From: Escherichia coli | Lineage (GTDB): Bacteria; Pseudomonadota; Gammaproteobacteria; Enterobacterales; Enterobacteriaceae | Reading direction: 5' to 3' (one strand) | NCBI RefSeq assembly: GCF_003991155.1 | Contig: NZ_CP031293.1 | DNA: 64,000 nucleotides | Part shown: positions 1 through 40,486 of the stretch, piece after piece | Position numbering within the stretch: position 1 is the first letter of the stretch | Layout: every line of letters begins with the position of its first letter | Program-made: the position numbers and the translations under genes | Notes under the pieces: model-generated | Told to the model about the DNA's origin: nothing | The model's database searches: none | The model's input: only the letters and a program-made list of their open reading frames with translations

Positions 1-976
1 CCATCGCCTGGAAGTCCAGCATCCCCTGAACATGTGCGACGCAGCTCTGTGCCGCTTCTTTTTGCAATCTGGCGTGTTGCTGTGGATCCTGCTGTGCAGC
101 GCGCCATTGTTCTACGCTCCAGCCCATCGGTAGGTAGCCATAAACCAGATCGTGAGCGGAAGTCTGGTCGGTCACCAGATCCGGCTTGATCGCCCCCTGA
201 CGTGCACGTTTCACCAGTTCAGGAACAATTTCCGCCGCATTGCCCAACAGCGCGATTGAAACAGCGTCTTTGCGCTCAGTATGGTATTTAATCAGCGCCA
301 GTGCATCATCGAGATCTTTCGCTTGTTTATCGACATAACGGGTACGCAGACGGAAGTCGATGCTACTTTGCTGGCACTCGATATTTAATGAACACGCCCC
401 CGCCAGAGTCGCCGCCAGCGGTTGTGCACCGCCCATACCACCTAGCCCTGCGGTCAGGATCCATTTTCCACTCAGCGAATTGTTGTAGTGCTGACGACCC
501 GCTTCAACAAAGGTTTCGAACGTTCCCTGCACAATGCCCTGACTACCGATGTAGATCCACGAGCCAGCGGTCATCTGGCCGTACATGAACAGACCTTTAC
601 GATCCAGTTCATTGAAATGATCCCAGTTGGCCCATTGCGGTACCAGGTTAGAGTTGGCAATCAATACGCGCGGCGCATCGGTATGCGTTTTAAACACGCC
701 TACGGGTTTACCGGACTGAACCAGCAGTGACTCATCAGCTTCCAGATTTTTCAGTGATTCAAGGATTTTGTCAAAACACTCCCAGTTACGTGCCGCACGA
801 CCAATACCACCATACACCACCAGATGCTGTGGATTTTCGGCAACGTCGGGATCAAGGTTGTTCTGCAACATCCGATAGGCAGCTTCGATCTGCCAGTTTT
901 TGCAGTGCAGCTGCGTACCGTGTGGCGCATGGATTACACGGCTGGTATCAATACGCGGGTCTGAAGGCTTACTCAT
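1..976 (-). CDS. hutU: Urocanate hydratase, N-terminal ~325 codons; 3' end lies beyond the window edge
   Basis: Minus-strand frame open to position 1; ATG at 974-976 preceded by GGAG; my translation [23 protein letters not shown]...[15 protein letters not shown]...[15 protein letters not shown]...[13 protein letters not shown] matches the urocanase family. Confidence 0.85.
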
Positions 977-1041
977 GAATCTTCTCCTGTTACTTGATAA
1001 AATTAAACGCTGTAATCGGTCAGAAAAAACGAACGAATGAA

Positions 1042-1060
1042 TATAGAAACGGTTTCTATA
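1042..1060. promoter_or_regulatory. Perfect 9-1-9 palindrome TATAGAAAC-G-GTTTCTATA about 70 bp upstream of the hutU start; candidate operator
   Basis: Palindrome read directly from the sequence; no match to a named operator consensus asserted. Confidence 0.3.
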
Positions 1061-1733
1061 ATTCCCGTTTATCATTTTGTATTATTAATTCATTTAGTGA
1101 ATATTGTTTGTCGTGGTATATTCACTATGAATATAAATTCAAAACCACCAACGCGTTGTATGCGAATTCAATATGCTTAATTTAACTTGTCGAAAAAGTG
1201 ATATTGTTGGCAAAATATTTTCTAATTTGAACATATGAATATGATGAGATTGCAAGATGTCAGTAATTTAATTATATGAGAAATGCGTTAATAACGACCA
1301 GATATTAGCGTAACAACAGGTGTTCCGACACCACACAGTGCGCATAACACAATGATATTTAAAATAAGATCTTCATTATTCGTCATAAAGACATGTTTTA
1401 TTATCATTAATAATCCATTTGTTTTCATCCCACTTTTGATAATTAAAAAACGGCAACAATGGATAGTTACCCGACGTAAAAACAGGCGTAAAAATAAATC
1501 TTAAAATATATCCACTGGAAATTATCATTTTTCATATTTTACAATCTGGCGTCGATAACTGACCCCTTTTATAACACCCCCGTTTGTTAATAGTCTTTTT
1601 TATCTTGTATTGATCGTCATTGCTGCATACACTACGCGCGTTTTCTTTCCCTTTTGCTGGCTGCTGACCGGAAAGACAAAATTACCCTCGCAATAAAGGG
1701 GGTTGTTTAACGTCTATATTTCAGGACAGCGTT

Positions 1734-3131
1734 ATGCATCATCTTTCAAGGCTTGATAAAGCCTTTCTGCGCAAAGGGATCCAACTTTCCCGCGCCAACA
1801 ATATTGTTTCATTATGTCGTCCATCAGGAGCCAGTGCCCACGTACTGCTGCCGGACGAACTGCCGCTGGAAGAAAAAGCAGTGACACAACTGCTTGATTT
1901 TGCAGAAGTGAAGATACCAGACCATCCAGGTTACGTACGCCAGACCTGTGCGACGCCAGATTTTCATCCCGGCAATGGCGTCCCCGTTGGCGCGGTAGTC
2001 GCCTCTACGCCGGATTTAGTCATTCCTGCGGCCATCGGCACCGATATTTCTTGTGGCATGCGGCTGCTGACGACCGGATTAACACTTGAGCAAGCCGAAG
2101 CGAATAAAGAAATAATCACTCAGCGGTTAACACAAGTGTTACTGCAAAATGAGCGCGATGTTCCGTTATCCGCACGAGCGTTCACCGCGCTTTTTGATGG
2201 CGGACCGGCAGATTGCATGTCGGCCTTGCCATCAGCAGGTCTCTGGACACGTACAAATATCCCCCGAATGACGCAAGAGATTGACCGCTGCATTGGGCTT
2301 AACGAGCATAACAGTCATTCGCGTTATGCCCCACCCGCCCTACTGGTAACGGACCGCCCATTACTCCGCGATCCTTGTCTTGGTACGCCGGGTTCAGGTA
2401 ATCATTTTATTGAACTTCAGGTGGTTGATAGCGTGGTTGATCGCCATGTTGCCTGGCAACAAGGGCTGAAAACGGGCGATATTGTGGTGATGATCCACAG
2501 TGGATCGCGAGATGTTGGCTTTTACGTCGGAAGACGCTGGATGGATCGCGCCCGTGCTGAATGGCCCACCGGACATAAACATCCACAAAGCGGGTTATAT
2601 GGCCTGGCAGGCGGACTGGCGGAGGAATATCTACAAGCGATGGGAATGGCGGCGCGTTACGCGTGGTTAAATCGCGTCACAATTGCCGAAATGGTGCGCG
2701 TATGTCTTGCCAATCTCTTTCATCAGGACAATTCGCATCTGGTGGTGGATGTGCCGCATAACATCATCCTTCGCGAGCATGAAATGAATATTCATCGCAA
2801 AGGTGCAACACCGGCACGCGCGGGCAATCTGGCGTTAATCCCCGGTTCAATGGGCGATTATTCGTGGCTTGCAGTCGGTTGCGGCAACCCGGAGTGGCTG
2901 TGGTCTTGCAGTCACGGAGCAGGACGCAGCCAGCGTCGGCAGGCCATGCACTCACGCGCGACTGAAGAGTCAACGTTGCCGTGGCAATGCGTCACATTGC
3001 GCGAAGAACGGCGTATTGAAGAAGCGCCAGCTGCTTATAAAGATATTGGTCCGGTTATCGAAGCCCAACAAGAGGCCGGATTAATTCATCCAGCGGTTAG
3101 ATTCCGACCGTGGTTAACGTTTAAGGCATAA
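1734..3131 (+). CDS. RtcB-family RNA ligase paralogue (465 aa)
   Basis: ORF translation carries RtcB-type motifs: VIPAAIGTDISCGMRL, GSGNHFIELQ, IHSGSRDVG, IPGSMGDYS, CSHGAGR, AYKDIGPV; start codon uncertain (weak RBS). Confidence 0.85.
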   Translation: MHHLSRLDKAFLRKGIQLSRANNIVSLCRPSGASAHVLLPDELPLEEKAVTQLLDFAEVKIPDHPGYVRQTCATPDFHPGNGVPVGAVVASTPDLVIPAAIGTDISCGMRLLTTGLTLEQAEANKEIITQRLTQVLLQNERDVPLSARAFTALFDGGPADCMSALPSAGLWTRTNIPRMTQEIDRCIGLNEHNSHSRYAPPALLVTDRPLLRDPCLGTPGSGNHFIELQVVDSVVDRHVAWQQGLKTGDIVVMIHSGSRDVGFYVGRRWMDRARAEWPTGHKHPQSGLYGLAGGLAEEYLQAMGMAARYAWLNRVTIAEMVRVCLANLFHQDNSHLVVDVPHNIILREHEMNIHRKGATPARAGNLALIPGSMGDYSWLAVGCGNPEWLWSCSHGAGRSQRRQAMHSRATEESTLPWQCVTLREERRIEEAPAAYKDIGPVIEAQQEAGLIHPAVRFRPWLTFKA

Positions 3132-3154
3132 AAAAAGGCCATCATATGATGGCC
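3130..3154 (-). terminator. Intrinsic terminator of the sdh-suc operon, shared by convergent genes (palindrome GGCCATCAT/ATGATGGCC plus U-run on minus strand)
   Basis: 18-bp perfect palindrome 3137-3154 flanked by a 7-A run 3130-3136, which is a U-run for the minus-strand transcript. Confidence 0.65.
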
Positions 3155-3229
3155 AACCATGTCGAAACCGACAGCCCTTCGCCATTCCTGTAGAGGGAAG
3201 CGGCGAGGGCTATTTCTTATTACAGATAT
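3130..3229 (-). ncRNA. sdhX: sucD 3'UTR-derived sRNA candidate (SdhX/RybD-like)
   Basis: About 100 nt between the sucD stop and the terminator; position corresponds to the known SdhX locus in E. coli; sequence identity not verified. Confidence 0.45.
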
Positions 3230-4099
3230 TTATTTCAGAACAGTTTTCAGTGCTTCACCGATATCCGCCAGGCTGCGAACGGTTTTCACGCCTGCGGCTT
3301 CCAGAGCAGCGAATTTCTCATCCGCAGTCCCTTTCCCACCGGCAATGATCGCACCTGCGTGACCCATACGTTTGCCTTTCGGCGCAGTCACACCAGCGAT
3401 GTAACCTACAACTGGCTTGGTAACGTGCTCTTTGATGTATGCAGCCGCTTCTTCTTCAGCGCTACCACCGATCTCACCGATCATCACGATCGCTTCGGTC
3501 TGCGGATCTTTTTCGAACATTTCGAGGATGTCGATAAAGTTAGAGCCAGGGATCGGGTCGCCGCCGATACCAACACAGGTCGACTGACCGAAACCGTAAT
3601 CCGTGGTCTGTTTAACCGCTTCATAGGTCAGTGTACCGGAACGGGAAACGATACCCACTTTACCCGGTTTGTGAATGTGACCAGGCTGGATACCGATTTT
3701 GCATTCACCCGGAGTGATAACGCCCGGGCAGTTCGGGCCGATCATGCGAACGCCCGCTTCATCCAGTTTCACCTTCACGGTCAGCATATCCAGCGTCGGG
3801 ATGCCTTCAGTGATGGTGATAATCAGTTTGATGCCTGCATCAATAGCTTCCAGAATGGAGTCTTTGCAGAACGGTGCTGGTACGTAGATAACAGAAGCGG
3901 TAGCGCCAGTAGCAGCAACAGCTTCACGCACGGTGTTGAACACCGGCAGGCCGAGGTGGGTGGTGCCGCCTTTACCTGGGGTTACGCCGCCAACCATTTT
4001 AGTGCCGTATGCAATAGCCTGTTCTGAGTGGAAAGTCCCCTGGCTACCGGTAAAGCCCTGGCAGATAACCTTGGTGTTTTTATCAATTAAAATGGACAT
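3230..4099 (-). CDS. sucD: Succinyl-CoA synthetase alpha subunit
   Basis: 289-aa ORF; translation [33 protein letters not shown]... Confidence 0.97.
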
Positions 4100-5265
4100 T
4101 ATTTCCCCTCCACTGCGGCAACAACCTGCTGAGCTGCATCCGTCAGACCTTTTGCTGCAATAATATTCAGGCCGCTGTCAGCCAGTTTCTTCGCGCCGAG
4201 TTCGGCGTTGTTACCTTCCAGACGTACCACGACCGGTACGTTAACACCCACTTCCGCTACCGCGCCGATGATACCGTCAGCGATCAGGTCGCAACGAACG
4301 ATACCGCCGAAGATGTTAACCAGAACGGCTTTCACTTTGTCGTCAGAGAGGATGATTTTGAACGCTTCGGTTACGCGCTCTTTGGTTGCGCCGCCGCCAA
4401 CGTCCAGGAAGTTAGCTGGTTCGCCGCCGTGCAGTTTAACGATGTCCATGGTGCCCATCGCCAGGCCTGCGCCGTTAACCATACAACCGATGTTACCGTC
4501 CAGCGCAACGTAGTTCAGTTCCCACTGTGCAGCCTGTGCTTCACGCGGATCTTCCTGCGACTGGTCACGCATTTCGCGCAGATCAGGCTGGCGGAACAGT
4601 GCGTTGCCATCAGCGCCCAGTTTGCCGTCGAGGCAAATCAGATCGCCCTGTTTGGTGATGACCAGCGGGTTGATTTCGATCAGCGCCAGGTCGCGCTCCA
4701 GGAAAATGGTCGCCAGGCCCATGAAGATTTTGGTGAACTGCTGAACCAGTTTACCTTCCAGACCCAGTTTGAACGCCAGCTCGCGTCCCTGATACGGCAT
4801 CGGGCCAGTCAGCGGATCAAGCGCAACTTTGTGGATCAGGTGCGGAGTTTCTTCCGCCACTTTTTCGATTTCCACGCCGCCTTCGGTGGAGGCCATAAAG
4901 ACCACGCGACGTGAACTACGGTCTACAACGGCACCGAGATACAGCTCTTTAGCGATATCGGTCGCTGCTTCAACCAGAATCTGGTTAACCGGTTGGCCAT
5001 TGGCATCTGTTTGATACGTTACCAGACGCTTGCCCAGCCAGTTTTCTGCAAAAGCACGGATGTCTTCTTTGCTGTTTACCACTTTCACACCGCCCGCTTT
5101 ACCGCGGCCACCAGCGTGAACCTGACATTTCACTACCCACGGACCGGCACCGATTTTTGAAGCGGCTTCTTCTGCTTCGCGCGGAGTAGTACAGGCATAA
5201 CCCACCGGTGCTGGTAAGCCATAGCGGGCAAAAAGTTGTTTTGCCTGATATTCATGTAAGTTCAT
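4099..5265 (-). CDS. sucC: Succinyl-CoA synthetase beta subunit
   Basis: 388-aa [21 protein letters not shown]...; stop overlaps the sucD start by 1 nt. Confidence 0.97.
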
Positions 5266-5305
5266 GTGTTCTGTCCATCCTTCAGTAATCGTTATCTTTT
5301 AAACC

Positions 5306-5336
5306 GTAGACCGACACCCTATCCACGTCGGTCTAC
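5306..5336 (-). other. Intercistronic hairpin between sucB and sucC (10-bp stem GTAGACCGAC/GTCGGTCTAC, 11-nt loop)
   Basis: Perfect inverted repeat read from the sequence; lies inside the operon transcript. Confidence 0.4.
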
Positions 5337-5358
5337 AGTGCAGGTGAAACTTAAACTA

Positions 5359-6576
5359 CTACACGTCCAGCAGCAGACGCGTCGGATCTTCCAGCAACTC
5401 TTTGATCGTTACCAGGAAGCCCACGGATTCGCGACCATCGATCAGACGGTGATCGTAGGACAGCGCCAGGTACATCATCGGCAGGATCTCAACCTGACCA
5501 TTCACCGCCATCGGACGATCTTTGATAGCGTGCATACCCAGAATTGCGCTCTGCGGCGGGTTGATGATCGGCGTAGACATCAGGGAACCGAACACACCAC
5601 CGTTGGTGATGGTGAAGTTACCACCGGTCAGATCTTCAACCGTCAGCTTGCCGTCACGGCCTTTAACTGCCAGCTCTTTAATTTTCTTCTCAATGTCTGC
5701 CATACCGAGGGTATCGACATCACGCAGTACCGGCGTCACCAGGCCGCGCGGCGTAGAAACCGCCATGCTGACGTCGAAATAGTTGTGGTAAACCACGTCA
5801 TCGCCGTCGATAGAAGCATTCACTTCCGGGTAACGTTTCAGGGCTTCAACCACCGCTTTCACGTAGAAGGACATAAAGCCCAGACGGATGCCGTGGCGTT
5901 TTTCAAACGCTTCACCGTACTGCTTACGCAGATCCATAATCGGCTTCATGTTGACTTCGTTGAACGTGGTCAGCATGGCGGTGGAGTTTTTCGCTTCCAG
6001 CAGACGCTCTGCCACACGCTTACGCAGGCGAGTCATCGGCACACGTTTTTCGCTACGTGCAGCCAGGGCCGGTTGCGCCGCCGGAGCAGCCGCTGCCGGA
6101 GCAGACTCTTTCGCCGGGGCTTTCGCCAGATGTTTTTCCACATCTTCACGGGTCAGACGACCACCTACACCGGTGCCTTTAATGGCGCTGGCATCAAGAT
6201 TGTGTTCAGCCAGCAGGCGACGGATCGCCGGGCTTAAAGCATCGTTGTTTTGCTCTTCCAGAGACGCCTGCTGGCGTTGCGCCGGAGTGGACGCTTTCTC
6301 TTCAGATTTGGCGCTGGTTTCTTTACCGGCGCTGTTGCCTTCACGCAGGCGACCAAGGATCTGACGAGACGTTACCGTTGTACCTTCATCTTCCAGAACC
6401 GCATCCAGAATGCCGTCTGCTGATGCCGGTACTTCCAGTACCACTTTGTCAGTTTCGATTTCTACCAGCACTTCATCACGTACGACTGCGTCGCCGGGTT
6501 TTTTATGCCAGGTTGCGACGGTGGCATCGGCTACGGATTCAGGCAGGTCAGGGACCAGAATATCTACGCTACTCAT
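5359..6576 (-). CDS. sucB: 2-oxoglutarate dehydrogenase E2 (dihydrolipoyllysine succinyltransferase)
   Basis: 405-aa ORF with lipoyl domain ([13 protein letters not shown]) and Ala/Pro-rich linker. Confidence 0.97.
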
Positions 6577-6590
6577 TGTGTATCCTTTAT

Positions 6591-9392
6591 TTATTCGACG
6601 TTCAGCGCGTCATTAACCAGATCTTGTTGCTGTTTCTGGTGAACGGACATATACCCTACCGCCGGAGAGGCGGAGGCCGGGCGGCCTGCATAACGCAGAG
6701 AAGCCCCAAACGGAATCACTTCACGGAAATGATGCTGGCTGCAGTACCATGCGCCCTGATTGAGCGGCTCTTCCTGGCACCAGACAAAATCCTTGACGTG
6801 AGCAAACTGCTGCAACACTTCCTGCATCGCTTTATGCGGGAACGGGTAGAGTTGCTCGATACGCACAATGGCGACATCGTGTTGATTGTTCTTACGACGC
6901 TGTTCCAGCAGGTCGTAATAAACCTTACCAGAACACATCACTACGCGCTTCACGCCCTTCGGATCAAGCTCGTCGATTTCACCGATGGCTGGCAGGAAGG
7001 TGCCGTTCGCCAGTTCTTCGAGGCTGGAAACCGCCAGCGGATGACGCAGCAGGGATTTCGGCGACATCACGACCAGCGGACGACGCATCCCGCGCAGCGC
7101 CTGACGACGCAGCATGTGGTAAACCTGTGCCGGGGTAGACGGTACGCACACCTGCATGTTTTGCTCAGCGCAAAGTTGCAGATAACGTTCCAGACGCGCG
7201 GAGGAGTGCTCCGGCCCCTGCCCTTCGTAACCGTGCGGCAGCAACATCACCAGACCACACATCCGGCCCCATTTCTGCTCGCCAGAGGAGATGAACTGGT
7301 CGATAACCACCTGAGCACCGTTGGCGAAGTCACCGAATTGCGCTTCCCAGATAGTCAGAGTGCGTGGTTCTGCGGTGGCATAACCGTATTCAAACGCCAG
7401 TACGGCTTCTTCAGACAGTACGGAGTCCCAGACACGGAACGCGCCCTGGCCGTTATGGATGTGTTGCAGCGGCGTGTAAGTGGAACCGTTAGACTGGTTG
7501 TGGATCACCGCGTGGCGGTGGAAGAAGGTACCGCGACCGGAGTCTTCACCCGACAGGCGAACCGGAATGCCTTCGTCAACCAGCGTGGCGTAAGCGAGGT
7601 TTTCCGCGCCGCCCCAGTCGAACAGTTTCTCACCAGCAGCCATCGCCTGGCGATCGCCATAAATCTTGGCAACGCGAGACTGCATTTCAACTGCTTCCGG
7701 CACCGTGCTGATGCGTTTAGCCAGTTCCTGCAGGCGCTTCATCTCAACTTTGTTCGGGTACTCTTCGTCCCATTCGTGGTTGAGGTACGGCGACCAGGTG
7801 AAAGAGTGCATGTTCATCGGACGCCACTCTGCTACAACGCAATCGCCAGCATCCAGCGCATCGCGGTACAGGTTAACCATCTCGGTGGCATCTTCCAGCG
7901 TCGCGACTTTTTCCTGCTCCAGCTTGTCAGCATAGATTTTGCGCGGCGTCGGATGTTTTTTGATTTTCTGATACATCAGCGGCTGGGTTGCGCTCGGCTC
8001 GTCGGCTTCGTTGTGGCCGTGACGGCGGTAGCACACCAGGTCGATGAAGACATCACGTTTAAAGGTGTTACGGAAATCGAGCGCCAGACGGGTCACAAAG
8101 GCAACGGCTTCCGGATCATCCGCGTTTACGTGGAAAATCGGTGCCTGAACCATCTTACCGATATCAGTACAGTACGGTGTAGAACGAGCATCCAGCGGAT
8201 TAGAGGTGGTGAAGCCAACCTGGTTGTTGATAACGATACGTACCGTACCGCCAACTTCATAACCACGCGCTTTCGACATGTTCAGGGTTTCCTGAACCAC
8301 GCCCTGCCCGGTCACTGCGGCGTCACCGTGGATGGTGATTGGCAGCACTTTGTTGCTGCTCGGCTCATCGAGTCTGTCCAGACGGGCACGAACAGAACCG
8401 ATAACTACCGGGCTGACAATCTCAAGGTGAGACGGGTTAAACGCCAGCGCCAGGTGCACCAGGCCGCCATCGGTCTGGAAGTCAGACGAGAAGCCCATGT
8501 GGTATTTCACGTCGCCCGTGCCGAGGTGTTCTTTATGTTTACCGGCAAACTCGTCGAACAAGTCTTGCGGTTTTTTACCCAGCACGTTCACCAGCACGTT
8601 CAGACGACCACGGTGCGCCATCCCGAGAACCACTTCGCGGGTGCCGCTGTTGCCAGCGTGGCGGATCATCTCTTTAAGCATCGGGATTAACGCGTCACCG
8701 CCTTCCAGCGAGAAGCGTTTTGCGCCAGGGAATTTTGCGCCGAGGTAACGTTCAAGGCCTTCAGCGGCGGTCAGTTCGCTTAAGAAGCGTTTTTTCTCTT
8801 CGCTATTGAAAGTCGCGCGACCAGACTCGATACGCTGTTGGATCCAGCGTTTTTCTTCGGTGCTGGTGATGTGCATATACTCGGCACCAATCGGGCCGCA
8901 GTAGGTTTGCTTGAGGGCTTCCAGCAGCTCGCCGAGTTTCATGGTTTCTTTGCCGCTGGCAAATGAACCGACGTTGAAGGTCTCCTGGAAGTCTGCTTCG
9001 GTCAGATCGTGGAAAGACGGATCCAGATCGGCCACTTTATCTTGCTGCCACAGTCCCAGCGGATCGAGATTCGCATGCTGGTGACCACGGAAGCGGTATG
9101 CGTTAATGAGCTGCAGGACTTTAACCTGCTTCACATTGGTGTCAGGGTCGGAGATCGTTGAAGAGTAACGTGAAGCGTCTTTCGCCAGGCGGCGGAAATA
9201 TTCACGCGTTTGAGAGTGGAATTGATCCGGTTTGACTCCCGTACCAGGTAACTGCTGGAACGTCGAACGCCAGTTAGCGTCAACCGAGTCAGGATCGGTT
9301 AAGAAGTCTTCATAGAGCTGTTCTATCCAGCTCTGGTTTGCGCCAGAGAGGTAAGAAGAGTCCAACCAGGCTTTCAAAGCGCTGTTCTGCAT
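6591..9392 (-). CDS. sucA: 2-oxoglutarate dehydrogenase E1
   Basis: 933-aa [34 protein letters not shown]... Confidence 0.97.
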
Positions 9393-9592
9393 CGTGATCC
9401 CTTAAGCATCTTTTTTATGCTTACTTCGCCGTGGATACTACCACGCACAGTGATGTGCGTGCCGGGGTTCACTTGCGAGCTCTTGTCTACGTAGTGGCTC
9501 GCGAAGGAACCTTTAAAAACTGTCTTAGTGTCAGGGGCAGTTTTTAAAGATTTCCTGAATAGCCGGGGGATTTCCCCGGCATCAACATTTAA

Positions 9593-10309
9593 TTACGCAT
9601 TACGTTGCAACAACATCGACTTGATATGGCCGATGGCGCGCGTCGGGTTCAGCCCCTTCGGACATACACTGACGCAGTTCATGATGCTGTGACAGCGGAA
9701 TACACTGAATGCATCGCTCAAACCGTCGAGGCGGCTGTCAGTCTCGGTATCACGGCTATCGATCAGGAAACGATATGCCGCTAACAAGCCTGCCGGGCCG
9801 ATAAACTTATCGGGATTCCACCAGAAAGACGGACAAGAGGTTGAACAACATGCGCAGAGAATACATTCATACAACCCGTCGAGTTTTTCGCGCTGCTCTG
9901 GCATCTGTAAATGCTCGCGAGCTGGCGGATTTTGTCCATTATTCAACAGGTAAGGCTTAATTTTCTCATATTGCGCATAGAATTGTCCCATGTCTACCAC
10001 CAAATCGCGGATCACCGGTAAACCTGGCAGCGGGCGAATCACAATCTTCTTGCCCGGCTGGTTGAGTGCCGAAATCGGGGTAATACAGGCCAGACCATTC
10101 TTGCCGTTCATGTTCAGACCGTCGGAACCGCACACACCTTCGCGGCAGGAGCGGCGGAACGACAGGCTGGGATCTTTCTCTTTCAGCTGGATAAGCGCAT
10201 CCAGCAGCATCATGTCGCGACCTTCTTCCGCTTCCAGGGTGTAATCCTGCATACGCGGAGCATCATCAACATCCGGGTTATAGCGATAAATTGAAAACTC
10301 GAGTCTCAT
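9593..10309 (-). CDS. sdhB: Succinate dehydrogenase iron-sulfur subunit
   Basis: 238-aa ORF with Cys clusters (CREGVCGSDG, CILCACCSTSCP, CHSIMNCVSVCP). Confidence 0.97.
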   Translation of the reverse strand: MRLEFSIYRYNPDVDDAPRMQDYTLEAEEGRDMMLLDALIQLKEKDPSLSFRRSCREGVCGSDGLNMNGKNGLACITPISALNQPGKKIVIRPLPGLPVIRDLVVDMGQFYAQYEKIKPYLLNNGQNPPAREHLQMPEQREKLDGLYECILCACCSTSCPSFWWNPDKFIGPAGLLAAYRFLIDSRDTETDSRLDGLSDAFSVFRCHSIMNCVSVCPKGLNPTRAIGHIKSMLLQRNA

Positions 10310-10324
10310 TTTCCTGTCTCCGCA

Positions 10325-12091
10325 TTAGTAAGTACGAATCTTCGGCGGGAATGCCGGGCGCAGTTTCGGTTCCATGTTGACGCTTCGGCGCGTCATGGAT
10401 TCCGACTCTGGCAGATACAGGGAGTGGCACAGCCAGTTTTCATCATCGCGATCCGGGAAGTCGAAGCGGCTATGCGCGCCACGGCTTTCGGTACGGAAGT
10501 TGGCAGAAACAGCCGTTGCATACGCCGTTTCCATCAGGTTATCCAGTTCCAGGCACTCAACGCGCTGGGTGTTGAACTCGCTGGAAGTGTCATCCAGACG
10601 GGCATTTTTCAGACGCTCGCGGATAACTTTCAACTGCTCAAGCCCTTTCGCCATCGCATCACCTTCACGGAAGACCGAGAAGTTATGCTGCATACATTCT
10701 TGCAGTGCTTTACGGATCGCCACCGGATCTTCACCGTTACGGTTGTTGTTCCAGCGATTCAGACGATCCAGAGACGCTTCTACATCAGACTCGCTGGCAT
10801 CGCGCAGTGCGCCCTGCTCGGCAATAGACTCTTGCAGATGCAGACCCGCTGCGCGACCAAAGACCACCAGGTCCAGCAGCGAGTTGCCGCCCAGACGGTT
10901 AGCGCCGTGTACCGATACACAAGCGATTTCACCAACGGCAAACAGCCCCGGAACAACCACATCTTCGCCTTTCTCGTTCACAGTCAGCGCCTGACCGGTC
11001 ACTTTGGTCGGAATACCGCCCATCATGTAGTGACAGGTTGGGATAACCGGAATCGGCTCTTTCACCGGATCAACGTGAGCGAAGGTACGGGAGAGTTCCA
11101 GAATACCCGGCAGACGGGATTCGAGAACTTCTTTACCCAGGTGATCGAGTTTCAGTTTCGCGTGTGGCCCCCACGGACCATCACAGCCGCGACCTTCACG
11201 GATTTCGATCATGATGGAACGCGCCACCACATCACGGCCCGCCAGGTCTTTGGCGTTCGGCGCATAACGCTCCATAAAGCGTTCGCCATGTTTGTTCAGC
11301 AGATAACCGCCTTCACCACGGCAACCTTCGGTGACCAGTACGCCCGCACCGGCAATACCGGTCGGGTGGAACTGCCACATTTCCATATCCTGTACCGGTA
11401 CGCCTGCACGGATAGCCATGCCGACACCGTCGCCAGTGTTAATGTGGGCGTTGGTGGTGGACTGATAAATACGCCCTGCCCCGCCAGTCGCCAGCACTGT
11501 CGCGCGAGCTTTAAAGTAAACCACTTCACCAGTTTCGATGCACAGTGCGGTACAACCGACCACTGCGCCATCCTGGTTTTTCACCAGATCCAGCGCATAC
11601 CACTCGGAGAAAATGGTGGTGTGGTTTTTCAGGTTCTGCTGATAAAGCGTGTGCAACAGTGCGTGACCGGTACGGTCAGCTGCCGCCGCAGTACGTGCCG
11701 CCTGCTCGCCGCCGAAGTTTTTCGACTGACCGCCAAACGGACGTTGATAGATACGACCATCATCAAGACGCGAGAACGGCAGGCCCATATGTTCCAGTTC
11801 CAGAATCGCTTCCGGCCCGGTTTTACACATATATTCAATCGCGTCCTGGTCACCGATATAGTCCGACCCTTTTACGGTGTCGTACATATGCCATTCCCAG
11901 TTATCTTCATGGGTATTACCCAGCGCAACGGTAATGCCGCCTTGCGCAGAAACGGTATGGGAACGGGTCGGGAAGACTTTAGAGAGCAGCGCACAGGTCT
12001 GACCGCTCTGGGAAATTTGCAGCGCCGCGCGCATACCTGCGCCACCGGCACCAATCACAACTGCATCAAATTCTCTGACTGGCAATTTCAT
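10325..12091 (-). CDS. sdhA: Succinate dehydrogenase flavoprotein subunit
   Basis: Start set at the internal Met ([19 protein letters not shown]...), which overlaps the sdhD stop; FAD-binding motif present. Confidence 0.95.
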
Positions 12092-40229: not shown

Positions 40230-40486
40230 TCTACCGACTAAGGGCACTTCAGCGTACAGGTCTTCCTGACTCTCTGTATTACAGGCATATGCCTGTATTC
40301 CGCAGTGCTCATTCTCTGTTAACCCTTGTATTATCAGCCACCGGACTGATAAGGGTTTCTGCATTCTGAAAAAAGCAAACTTCTGATTAATTTATCAGCG
40401 GGGTAACTTTGCTTTTTTTCCGGCACGATCGATTTCTCATTCGAGAAATTGAGGACCTGCTATTACCAAAAATAAAGAGTTGGAAA

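Follow-up and report, generated by a model that had tools for sequence, protein, structure and literature searches.

The minus-strand segment 3129-3229 of the window (the whole 64,000-nucleotide stretch of Escherichia coli DNA analysed here) is very probably the canonical SdhX (RybD) gene together with the Rho-independent terminator of the sdhCDAB-sucABCD operon, the RtcB-family gene that meets it from the plus strand being a mere convergent neighbour. Judged from its sequence, the element is an already known one, the SdhX sRNA with the sdh-suc terminator, and is effectively identical to that of K-12.

SdhX and the sdh-suc terminator

The last gene of the sdhCDAB-sucABCD operon, sucD, is an ORF on the minus strand (3230-4099, stop codon 3230-3232). 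Behind it lie sucC, sucB (odhB), sucA, sdhB, sdhA and sdhD, an order confirmed in the record of E. coli strain 2016C-3878, to which bases 2900-3400 of the window are 100% identical. The earlier note had placed the SdhX sRNA in the sucD 3′-UTR of about 100 nt, and this was borne out by alignment of window 3229-3129 (minus strand) with sdhX of MG1655 (b4764, 765050-765150). The result showed that 100 of 101 nucleotides are identical, the 3′-UTR (3129-3229) being the equivalent of the full 101-nt K-12 gene, and that the sole difference in the alignment is a loop base at 3147, which is G in the K-12 RNA and A here. The two copies have in common the position directly past the sucD stop, the seed, the 7-bp stem and the U-tract, and the E. 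coli-specific structured 5′ part of K-12 SdhX is also present in the window copy. They differ in that the U-tract is U6 followed by G in K-12 and U7 in the window, and in that K-12 SdhX faces mngR whereas the window copy faces the RtcB-family gene.

The SdhX seed, UUCGACAUGGU with the core CGACAU, was defined just 5′ of the terminator stem-loop by Miyakoshi et al. 2019 (PMC6393394). It is matched exactly at 3156-3166 on the minus strand (core at 3159-3164), 1 nt before the hairpin; the loss of seed conservation that the earlier note had named as a refutation was thus not found. The 101-nt RNA is predicted to fold with -40.8 kcal/mol (z = -5.0) into a structured 5′ part, a single-stranded accessible seed region and then the terminator hairpin. 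Scanning of positions 1-12000 with cmscan against Rfam 15 gave no match at E ≤ 1, most likely because Rfam holds no SdhX model, and the assignment is therefore based on the match to the annotated K-12 gene and on the literature rather than on a covariance model. SdhX at an identity of at least 95% was present in 5419 of 5426 complete E. coli records. This confirms that SdhX and its terminator are near-invariant in E. coli and is otherwise of little consequence, apart from its value for annotation, since PGAP records leave sdhX unannotated.

CpxQ, NarS and SdhX are Hfq-dependent sRNAs that derive from a 3′-UTR, share the terminator of the parental mRNA and are released by RNase E (PMC6393394, PMC7038943). 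The window element shows no relevant difference from this class, of which SdhX is itself a founding example. In the published work, RNase E cuts SdhX out of an operon mRNA of roughly 10 kb, Hfq binds its hairpin and U-tail, and the seed base-pairs with ackA, and in E. coli with fdoG and katG too, all of which are thereby repressed (PMC6393394). Given the near-identity of the two RNAs, the SdhX encoded here is likewise expected to be processed by RNase E, to bind Hfq and to repress ackA, fdoG and katG.

The terminator consists of the hairpin GGCCAUC-AUAU-GAUGGCC at 3137-3154 on the minus strand (7-bp stem, 4-nt loop, -12.7 kcal/mol predicted) and of a U7 tract at 3130-3136, which reads as A7 on the plus strand; by analogy with K-12, the 3′ end of SdhX is expected at about 3130-3131. 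At 3137-3154 the terminator scan made a single call, on the minus strand, with seven base pairs of which five are G-C, a loop of 4 nt and TTTTTTTATG as the tail, in agreement with the intrinsic terminator (7-bp hairpin and U7) that had been proposed for the minus-strand sucD transcript. On the plus strand, the sequence 3′ of the hairpin is AACCATGTCGAAACC (AACCATGTCG) and contains no T-run; the first run of at least four T past the hairpin starts at 3244, so the earlier statement that the plus strand has no U-run after the hairpin holds. The plus-strand RNA also folds into a hairpin (-13.0 kcal/mol), and nothing there resembles an intrinsic terminator. A symmetric (bidirectional) intrinsic terminator, with an A-tract and a U-tract on both strands, was not found at 3130-3154.

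The hairpin sequence at 3137-3154 reads GGCCATCATATGATGGCC, a perfect palindrome of 18 nt. The 64-kb window contains two perfect palindromes of at least 18 nt, against 0.24 expected by chance, and GGCCATC-N4-GATGGCC was matched a single time in the window and never in 100 shuffled versions. The perfect palindrome as such is nevertheless read as incidental, because the stem comprises 7 bp and the self-complementary loop AUAU arises from a single SNP relative to GUAU in K-12. This loop SNP (3147) leaves the predicted hairpin stability unchanged, the energy being -12.7 kcal/mol for both the window and K-12.

The convergent junction in other genomes

The RtcB-family gene, a 465-aa ORF with a Pfam match on the plus strand (1734-3131), is convergent with sucD and ends in ...TFKA-TAA. 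The A7 run (3130-3136) begins with the two A's of its TAA stop (3129-3131), an overlap of 2 nt, and the palindrome (3137-3154) follows directly; the earlier description of the RtcB-like stop codon as running into the A-run and an 18-bp palindrome was therefore accurate. The K-12 junction of mngR and sdhX is tail-to-tail too, with sdhX ending at 765150 and the mngR CDS at 765153, 2 nt apart, and the mngR-sense hairpin of K-12 (-13.0 kcal/mol) likewise has no U-run. The two junctions differ in that four nucleotides (GCAC) lie between the mngR stop and the A-run in K-12, whereas the RtcB stop overlaps the A-run in the window. By this comparison, a convergent stop codon touching the SdhX terminator is the ordinary layout of the locus, and the identity of the gene alone changes.

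Comparison with the 5426 complete E. coli records showed that most genomes match the window from 3131 (the A-run) onward only. An RtcB-family gene is carried by 296 genomes and adjoins SdhX directly in about 156 of the 5426. The gene order in STO_Bone2 is LysR, RtcB (plus), mngB (minus), mngA (minus), mngR (plus) and SdhX-sucD (minus), and O157:H7 has about 100 nt of decayed RtcB 3′ remnants beside SdhX, in two fragments that correspond to window positions 2858-2914 and 3090-3131. A Logan metagenome contig from a related organism (L010) encodes an RtcB with 86% protein and 80% DNA identity. The hut-operon linkage is conserved there as well, and a TPR gene stands between this RtcB and GCATAATAAAAAAGGCCATCATACGATGGCCAACCAT at the contig end, which is the SdhX terminator. 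Across the genomes compared, the DNA right past the SdhX U-tract can be described as a hotspot of gene-content change, while SdhX and its terminator are essentially invariant in E. coli.

The junction alignment showed the RtcB gene of the window as ...GTTTAAG-GCA-TAA followed without a gap by AAAAAGGCC. The RtcB of genomes with a cassette ends in AAG-GGG-TAA or AAG-GGA-TGA (protein end ...FKG), and a separate GCATAA (GCACAA in K-12) still stands against the A-run in the mngR-type and L010 spacers. The ...KA end of the window protein is shared by 115 of the 120 best RtcB homologs, among them those of Pseudomonas, Burkholderia and Variovorax, and 5 end in ...FKG; P0002 (whose cassette is seen in L010), P0004 and the cassette-bearing STO_Bone2 RtcB all have the ...FKG end. 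We consider it somewhat probable that the direct abutment of RtcB and SdhX is ancestral, that the mngBAR and TPR cassettes were inserted at the last codon, and that the GCATAA of mngR-type spacers is a relic of the last RtcB codon and stop. The abutment is probably ancestral because RtcB retains the family-typical ...FKA end, although this case consists of a 6-nt relic and C-terminal residues and is suggestive.

The opposite history, in which the junction is the scar of an mngBAR deletion and GCA-TAA was borrowed from the mngR spacer, is disfavoured, since 115 of the 120 best homologs end in ...KA. This count makes an ancestral abutment with later cassette insertions the likelier course, and neither direction is proven.

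Transcription through the junction

The transcript ends published for K-12 bear on both strands of this locus. Adams et al. 2021 mapped such ends by Term-seq, and their curated table (PMC7815308, supplementary file 1) gives 765148(+) as the sole dominant 3′ end within 7650xx-7652xx; it was present in all three growth conditions and was labelled "antisense to mngR" by the authors' pipeline. This position is the last U of the SdhX U6 tract. Its values, 19,842 and 34,704, are among the highest in the portions of the table examined (PMC7815308). The K-12 Term-seq tables list no mngR-strand 3′ end within 7650xx-7652xx (PMC7815308), for which low mngR expression may be the sole cause. In addition, a Rho termination region antisense to mngR is reported at 765604(+), with a Rho score of 2.86 and a significance of 2.3e-5 (PMC7815308, supplementary file 2), about 455 nt beyond the SdhX 3′ end. 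The read-through documented in K-12 thus starts in the strongly expressed suc operon, enters the convergent gene and is limited by Rho, a direction opposite to the one first proposed for the window.

For plus-strand RtcB transcripts, the hairpin would not act as a classical intrinsic terminator. We infer from the sequence that transcripts passing the hairpin would more likely be stopped by Rho in the untranslated, C-rich RNA antisense to sucD, and/or that polymerases coming from the heavily transcribed suc operon would end RtcB transcription by colliding with it head-on. The C/G ratio, a weak and heuristic predictor of Rho sites that marks plausible loading regions and decides nothing, is 1.6-1.9 in the plus-strand RNA at 3288-3521 and 1.6-2.1 in the minus-strand RNA antisense to RtcB at about 2700-2390.

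The K-12 analogy also admits a doubtful alternative, in which part of the strong suc transcription passes the SdhX terminator, proceeds antisense into the 3′ part of RtcB until it is stopped by Rho, and so would dampen RtcB. The Rho region at 765604(+), antisense to mngR, and the C/G values of the minus-strand RNA at about 2700-2390 are both consistent with such interference. The former is an analogy with K-12 only, since the downstream sequence differs, and the window has one U more than K-12 in its U7 tract, which could lower read-through.

An arrangement in which the hairpin pauses both polymerases, and head-on and trailing collisions then determine where RtcB and suc transcripts end, the RtcB side having no U-run, is unlikely. 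The genes converge on a single stable hairpin, which forms in the RNA of either strand, and single-molecule work has indicated that bidirectional terminators are mainly hairpin pause sites at which collisions complete termination, more effectively for highly expressed pairs (bioRxiv 10.1101/2022.10.23.513370), a result that this arrangement would fit. The bidirectional terminators of convergent E. coli pairs such as ynaJ-uspE likewise place one hairpin between two stop codons. Unlike that type, however, the window element is asymmetric: one flank carries A7, and the RtcB side has no T-run. The efficiency of such termination moreover depends on traffic from both sides (bioRxiv 10.1101/2022.10.23.513370), and K-12 Term-seq showed no mngR-strand 3′ end at the corresponding hairpin.

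The earlier note had raised a possible antisense interaction between the two genes. In such a model, RtcB transcripts would cross the hairpin and contain 100 nt perfectly complementary to SdhX, acting as a sponge or exposing SdhX to a double-strand-specific RNase, which would couple RNA repair to TCA and acetate control. Its basis is a hairpin without a T-run on the plus strand, where the RNA does fold and nothing resembles an intrinsic terminator, together with an abutment that is at least tolerated and may be ancient. We regard this interaction as highly improbable. A link specific to RNA repair and a TCA-cycle sRNA was not borne out, the identical tail-to-tail geometry with mngR in K-12 leaving nothing specific to RtcB. 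The K-12 Term-seq tables list neither an opposite-strand 3′ end nor an antisense species around the hairpin, and the SdhX 3′ end is so abundant there, in the portions of the tables examined, that transcripts of a weakly expressed neighbour would count for next to nothing in stoichiometric terms. SdhX is invariant, whereas most E. coli have lost the neighbour or carry another gene in its place, which argues against a conserved functional partnership.

The abundance of the SdhX end in K-12 Term-seq, the dispensability of the neighbour and the opposite direction of the documented read-through together disfavour the antisense idea. Untranslated antisense RNA in E. coli is, besides, usually terminated early by Rho. 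None of the papers examined describes a regulatory antisense effect on SdhX, and a full-text search combining mngR, sucD and terminator gave no match. Dedicated antisense regulation of SdhX is unnecessary to explain any of the observations, and, as a caution, such regulation does not follow from geometry alone where a hairpin lacks a U-run. The narrower proposal that, in the strains with RtcB next to SdhX (~3% of E. coli), the 3′-UTR of RtcB mRNA is a perfect antisense sponge for SdhX is scarcely credible; if it were true, induction of the RNA ligase would lift SdhX repression of ackA, katG and fdoG and create a strain-specific tie between RNA-damage repair and acetate/TCA control.

The RtcB-family protein

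The gene at 1734-3131 is intact and is annotated in strain 2016C-3878 as WP_000546467.1, 'RtcB family protein'. The product of the 465-aa ORF matched Pfam RtcB (PF01139) at E = 8.6e-95 over residues 63-464. Alignment to Pyrococcus horikoshii RtcB showed that the RtcB domain is full length and that the metal-binding and guanylylation residues are present, with TDISCG, GSGNHF, MIHSGSR, VPHN and SHGAGR aligned to the corresponding P. horikoshii motifs in PDB RtcB chains. What we take to be the P. horikoshii catalytic set (D..C motif, NH, H, H and the HGAGR histidine) is matched in full. The scores against PRK09588 (canonical E. coli RtcB; 205.6 bits, NCBIfam cut-off 407) and TIGR03073 (release_rtcB, the PrfH-associated RtcB; 169, NCBIfam cut-off 271.8) are both below their cut-offs, and the protein of about 465 aa is therefore assigned, on these profile scores, to a distinct clade.

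Of the DNA upstream of the gene, 108 nt (1626-1733) are all that recurs in strains in which the upstream neighbour is another gene. Inspection of this conserved segment by eye for a sigma-54-type promoter gave no convincing match. Homologs of the protein with 60-67% identity are present in Pseudomonas, Burkholderia and Variovorax.

Junction between the RtcB-family gene and the SdhX terminator

The hexamer GCATAA was found to adjoin directly the A-run of the terminator of SdhX, the sRNA from the sucD 3′-UTR, also where the neighbouring gene is mngR or a TPR gene instead of the RtcB-family gene. This junction lies at 3122-3136 in the window, at 13107-13120 in L008 (a mng-carrying strain), at approximately 4996-5006 in comparison sequence L002 and at 10903-10915 in L010 (a metagenome contig from a related organism with the TPR gene); the K-12 form of the hexamer is GCACAA. 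GCATAA beside the A-run appears to be left over from the last codon and the stop codon of the RtcB-family gene, suggesting that cassettes were inserted at the final codon of this gene.

The mngBAR cassette is bounded on both sides by copies of one stem, GGCCATC-N4-GATGGCC. The second hairpin, whose 7-bp stem is exactly that of the SdhX terminator, is located at the far end of the cassette, in the RtcB-mngB intergenic region of the mng-carrying strains (7592-7609 in L008 and 5570-5587 in L009). The two copies could be a coincidence or a trace of cassette movement.

Apart from that of the SdhX terminator, the only perfect palindrome of at least 18 nt within the window, TACAGGCATATGCCTGTA (40280-40297), is located in the speFL leader/speF 5′ region.

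A gene remnant and an apparent sdhX disruption in other strains

In the O157:H7 strain 17B6-2 (L004), an unannotated remnant of the RtcB-family gene was found at 3942-4041, with a LysR-type gene on one side and SdhX on the other. This remnant consists of only two short fragments, matching window positions 2858-2914 and 3090-3131. Judging by the spread of match rows in a search of complete genomes, very roughly 15% of these may carry a remnant of this type.

In strain FDAARGOS_944 (L007, NZ_CP065613.1), an IS1 element occupies approximately 3235-4002 within the SdhX seed, at the equivalent of window 3157-3165, and is associated with a 9-bp target duplication, CCATGTCGA. Because the element comes between the terminator hairpin and the part of SdhX nearest sucD, the insertion looks like a natural disruption of sdhX.

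The RtcB-family gene and its surroundings

The clade of the RtcB-family protein (1734-3131), with a length of approximately 465 aa, is separate from both K-12 RtcB and PrfH-linked RtcB, and homologues of the protein with 60-67% identity occur in Pseudomonas aeruginosa, Burkholderia and Variovorax. Linkage of its gene to the hut (histidine utilisation) operon is seen both in the window (1-977) and in a related organism, where the RtcB protein shows 86% identity to that of the window.

Between the divergent hutU and RtcB-family genes lies an AT-rich intergenic region of 757 nt (978-1733). An Rfam search across this region gave no match, and its last 108 nt (1626-1733) are the only part common to strains with a different upstream neighbour.

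Within the sdh-suc operon, 93 nt separate sucB and sucC in the window (5266-5358), compared to 274 nt in K-12 DH5alpha; K-12 thus has approximately 180 nt of additional intergenic sequence.
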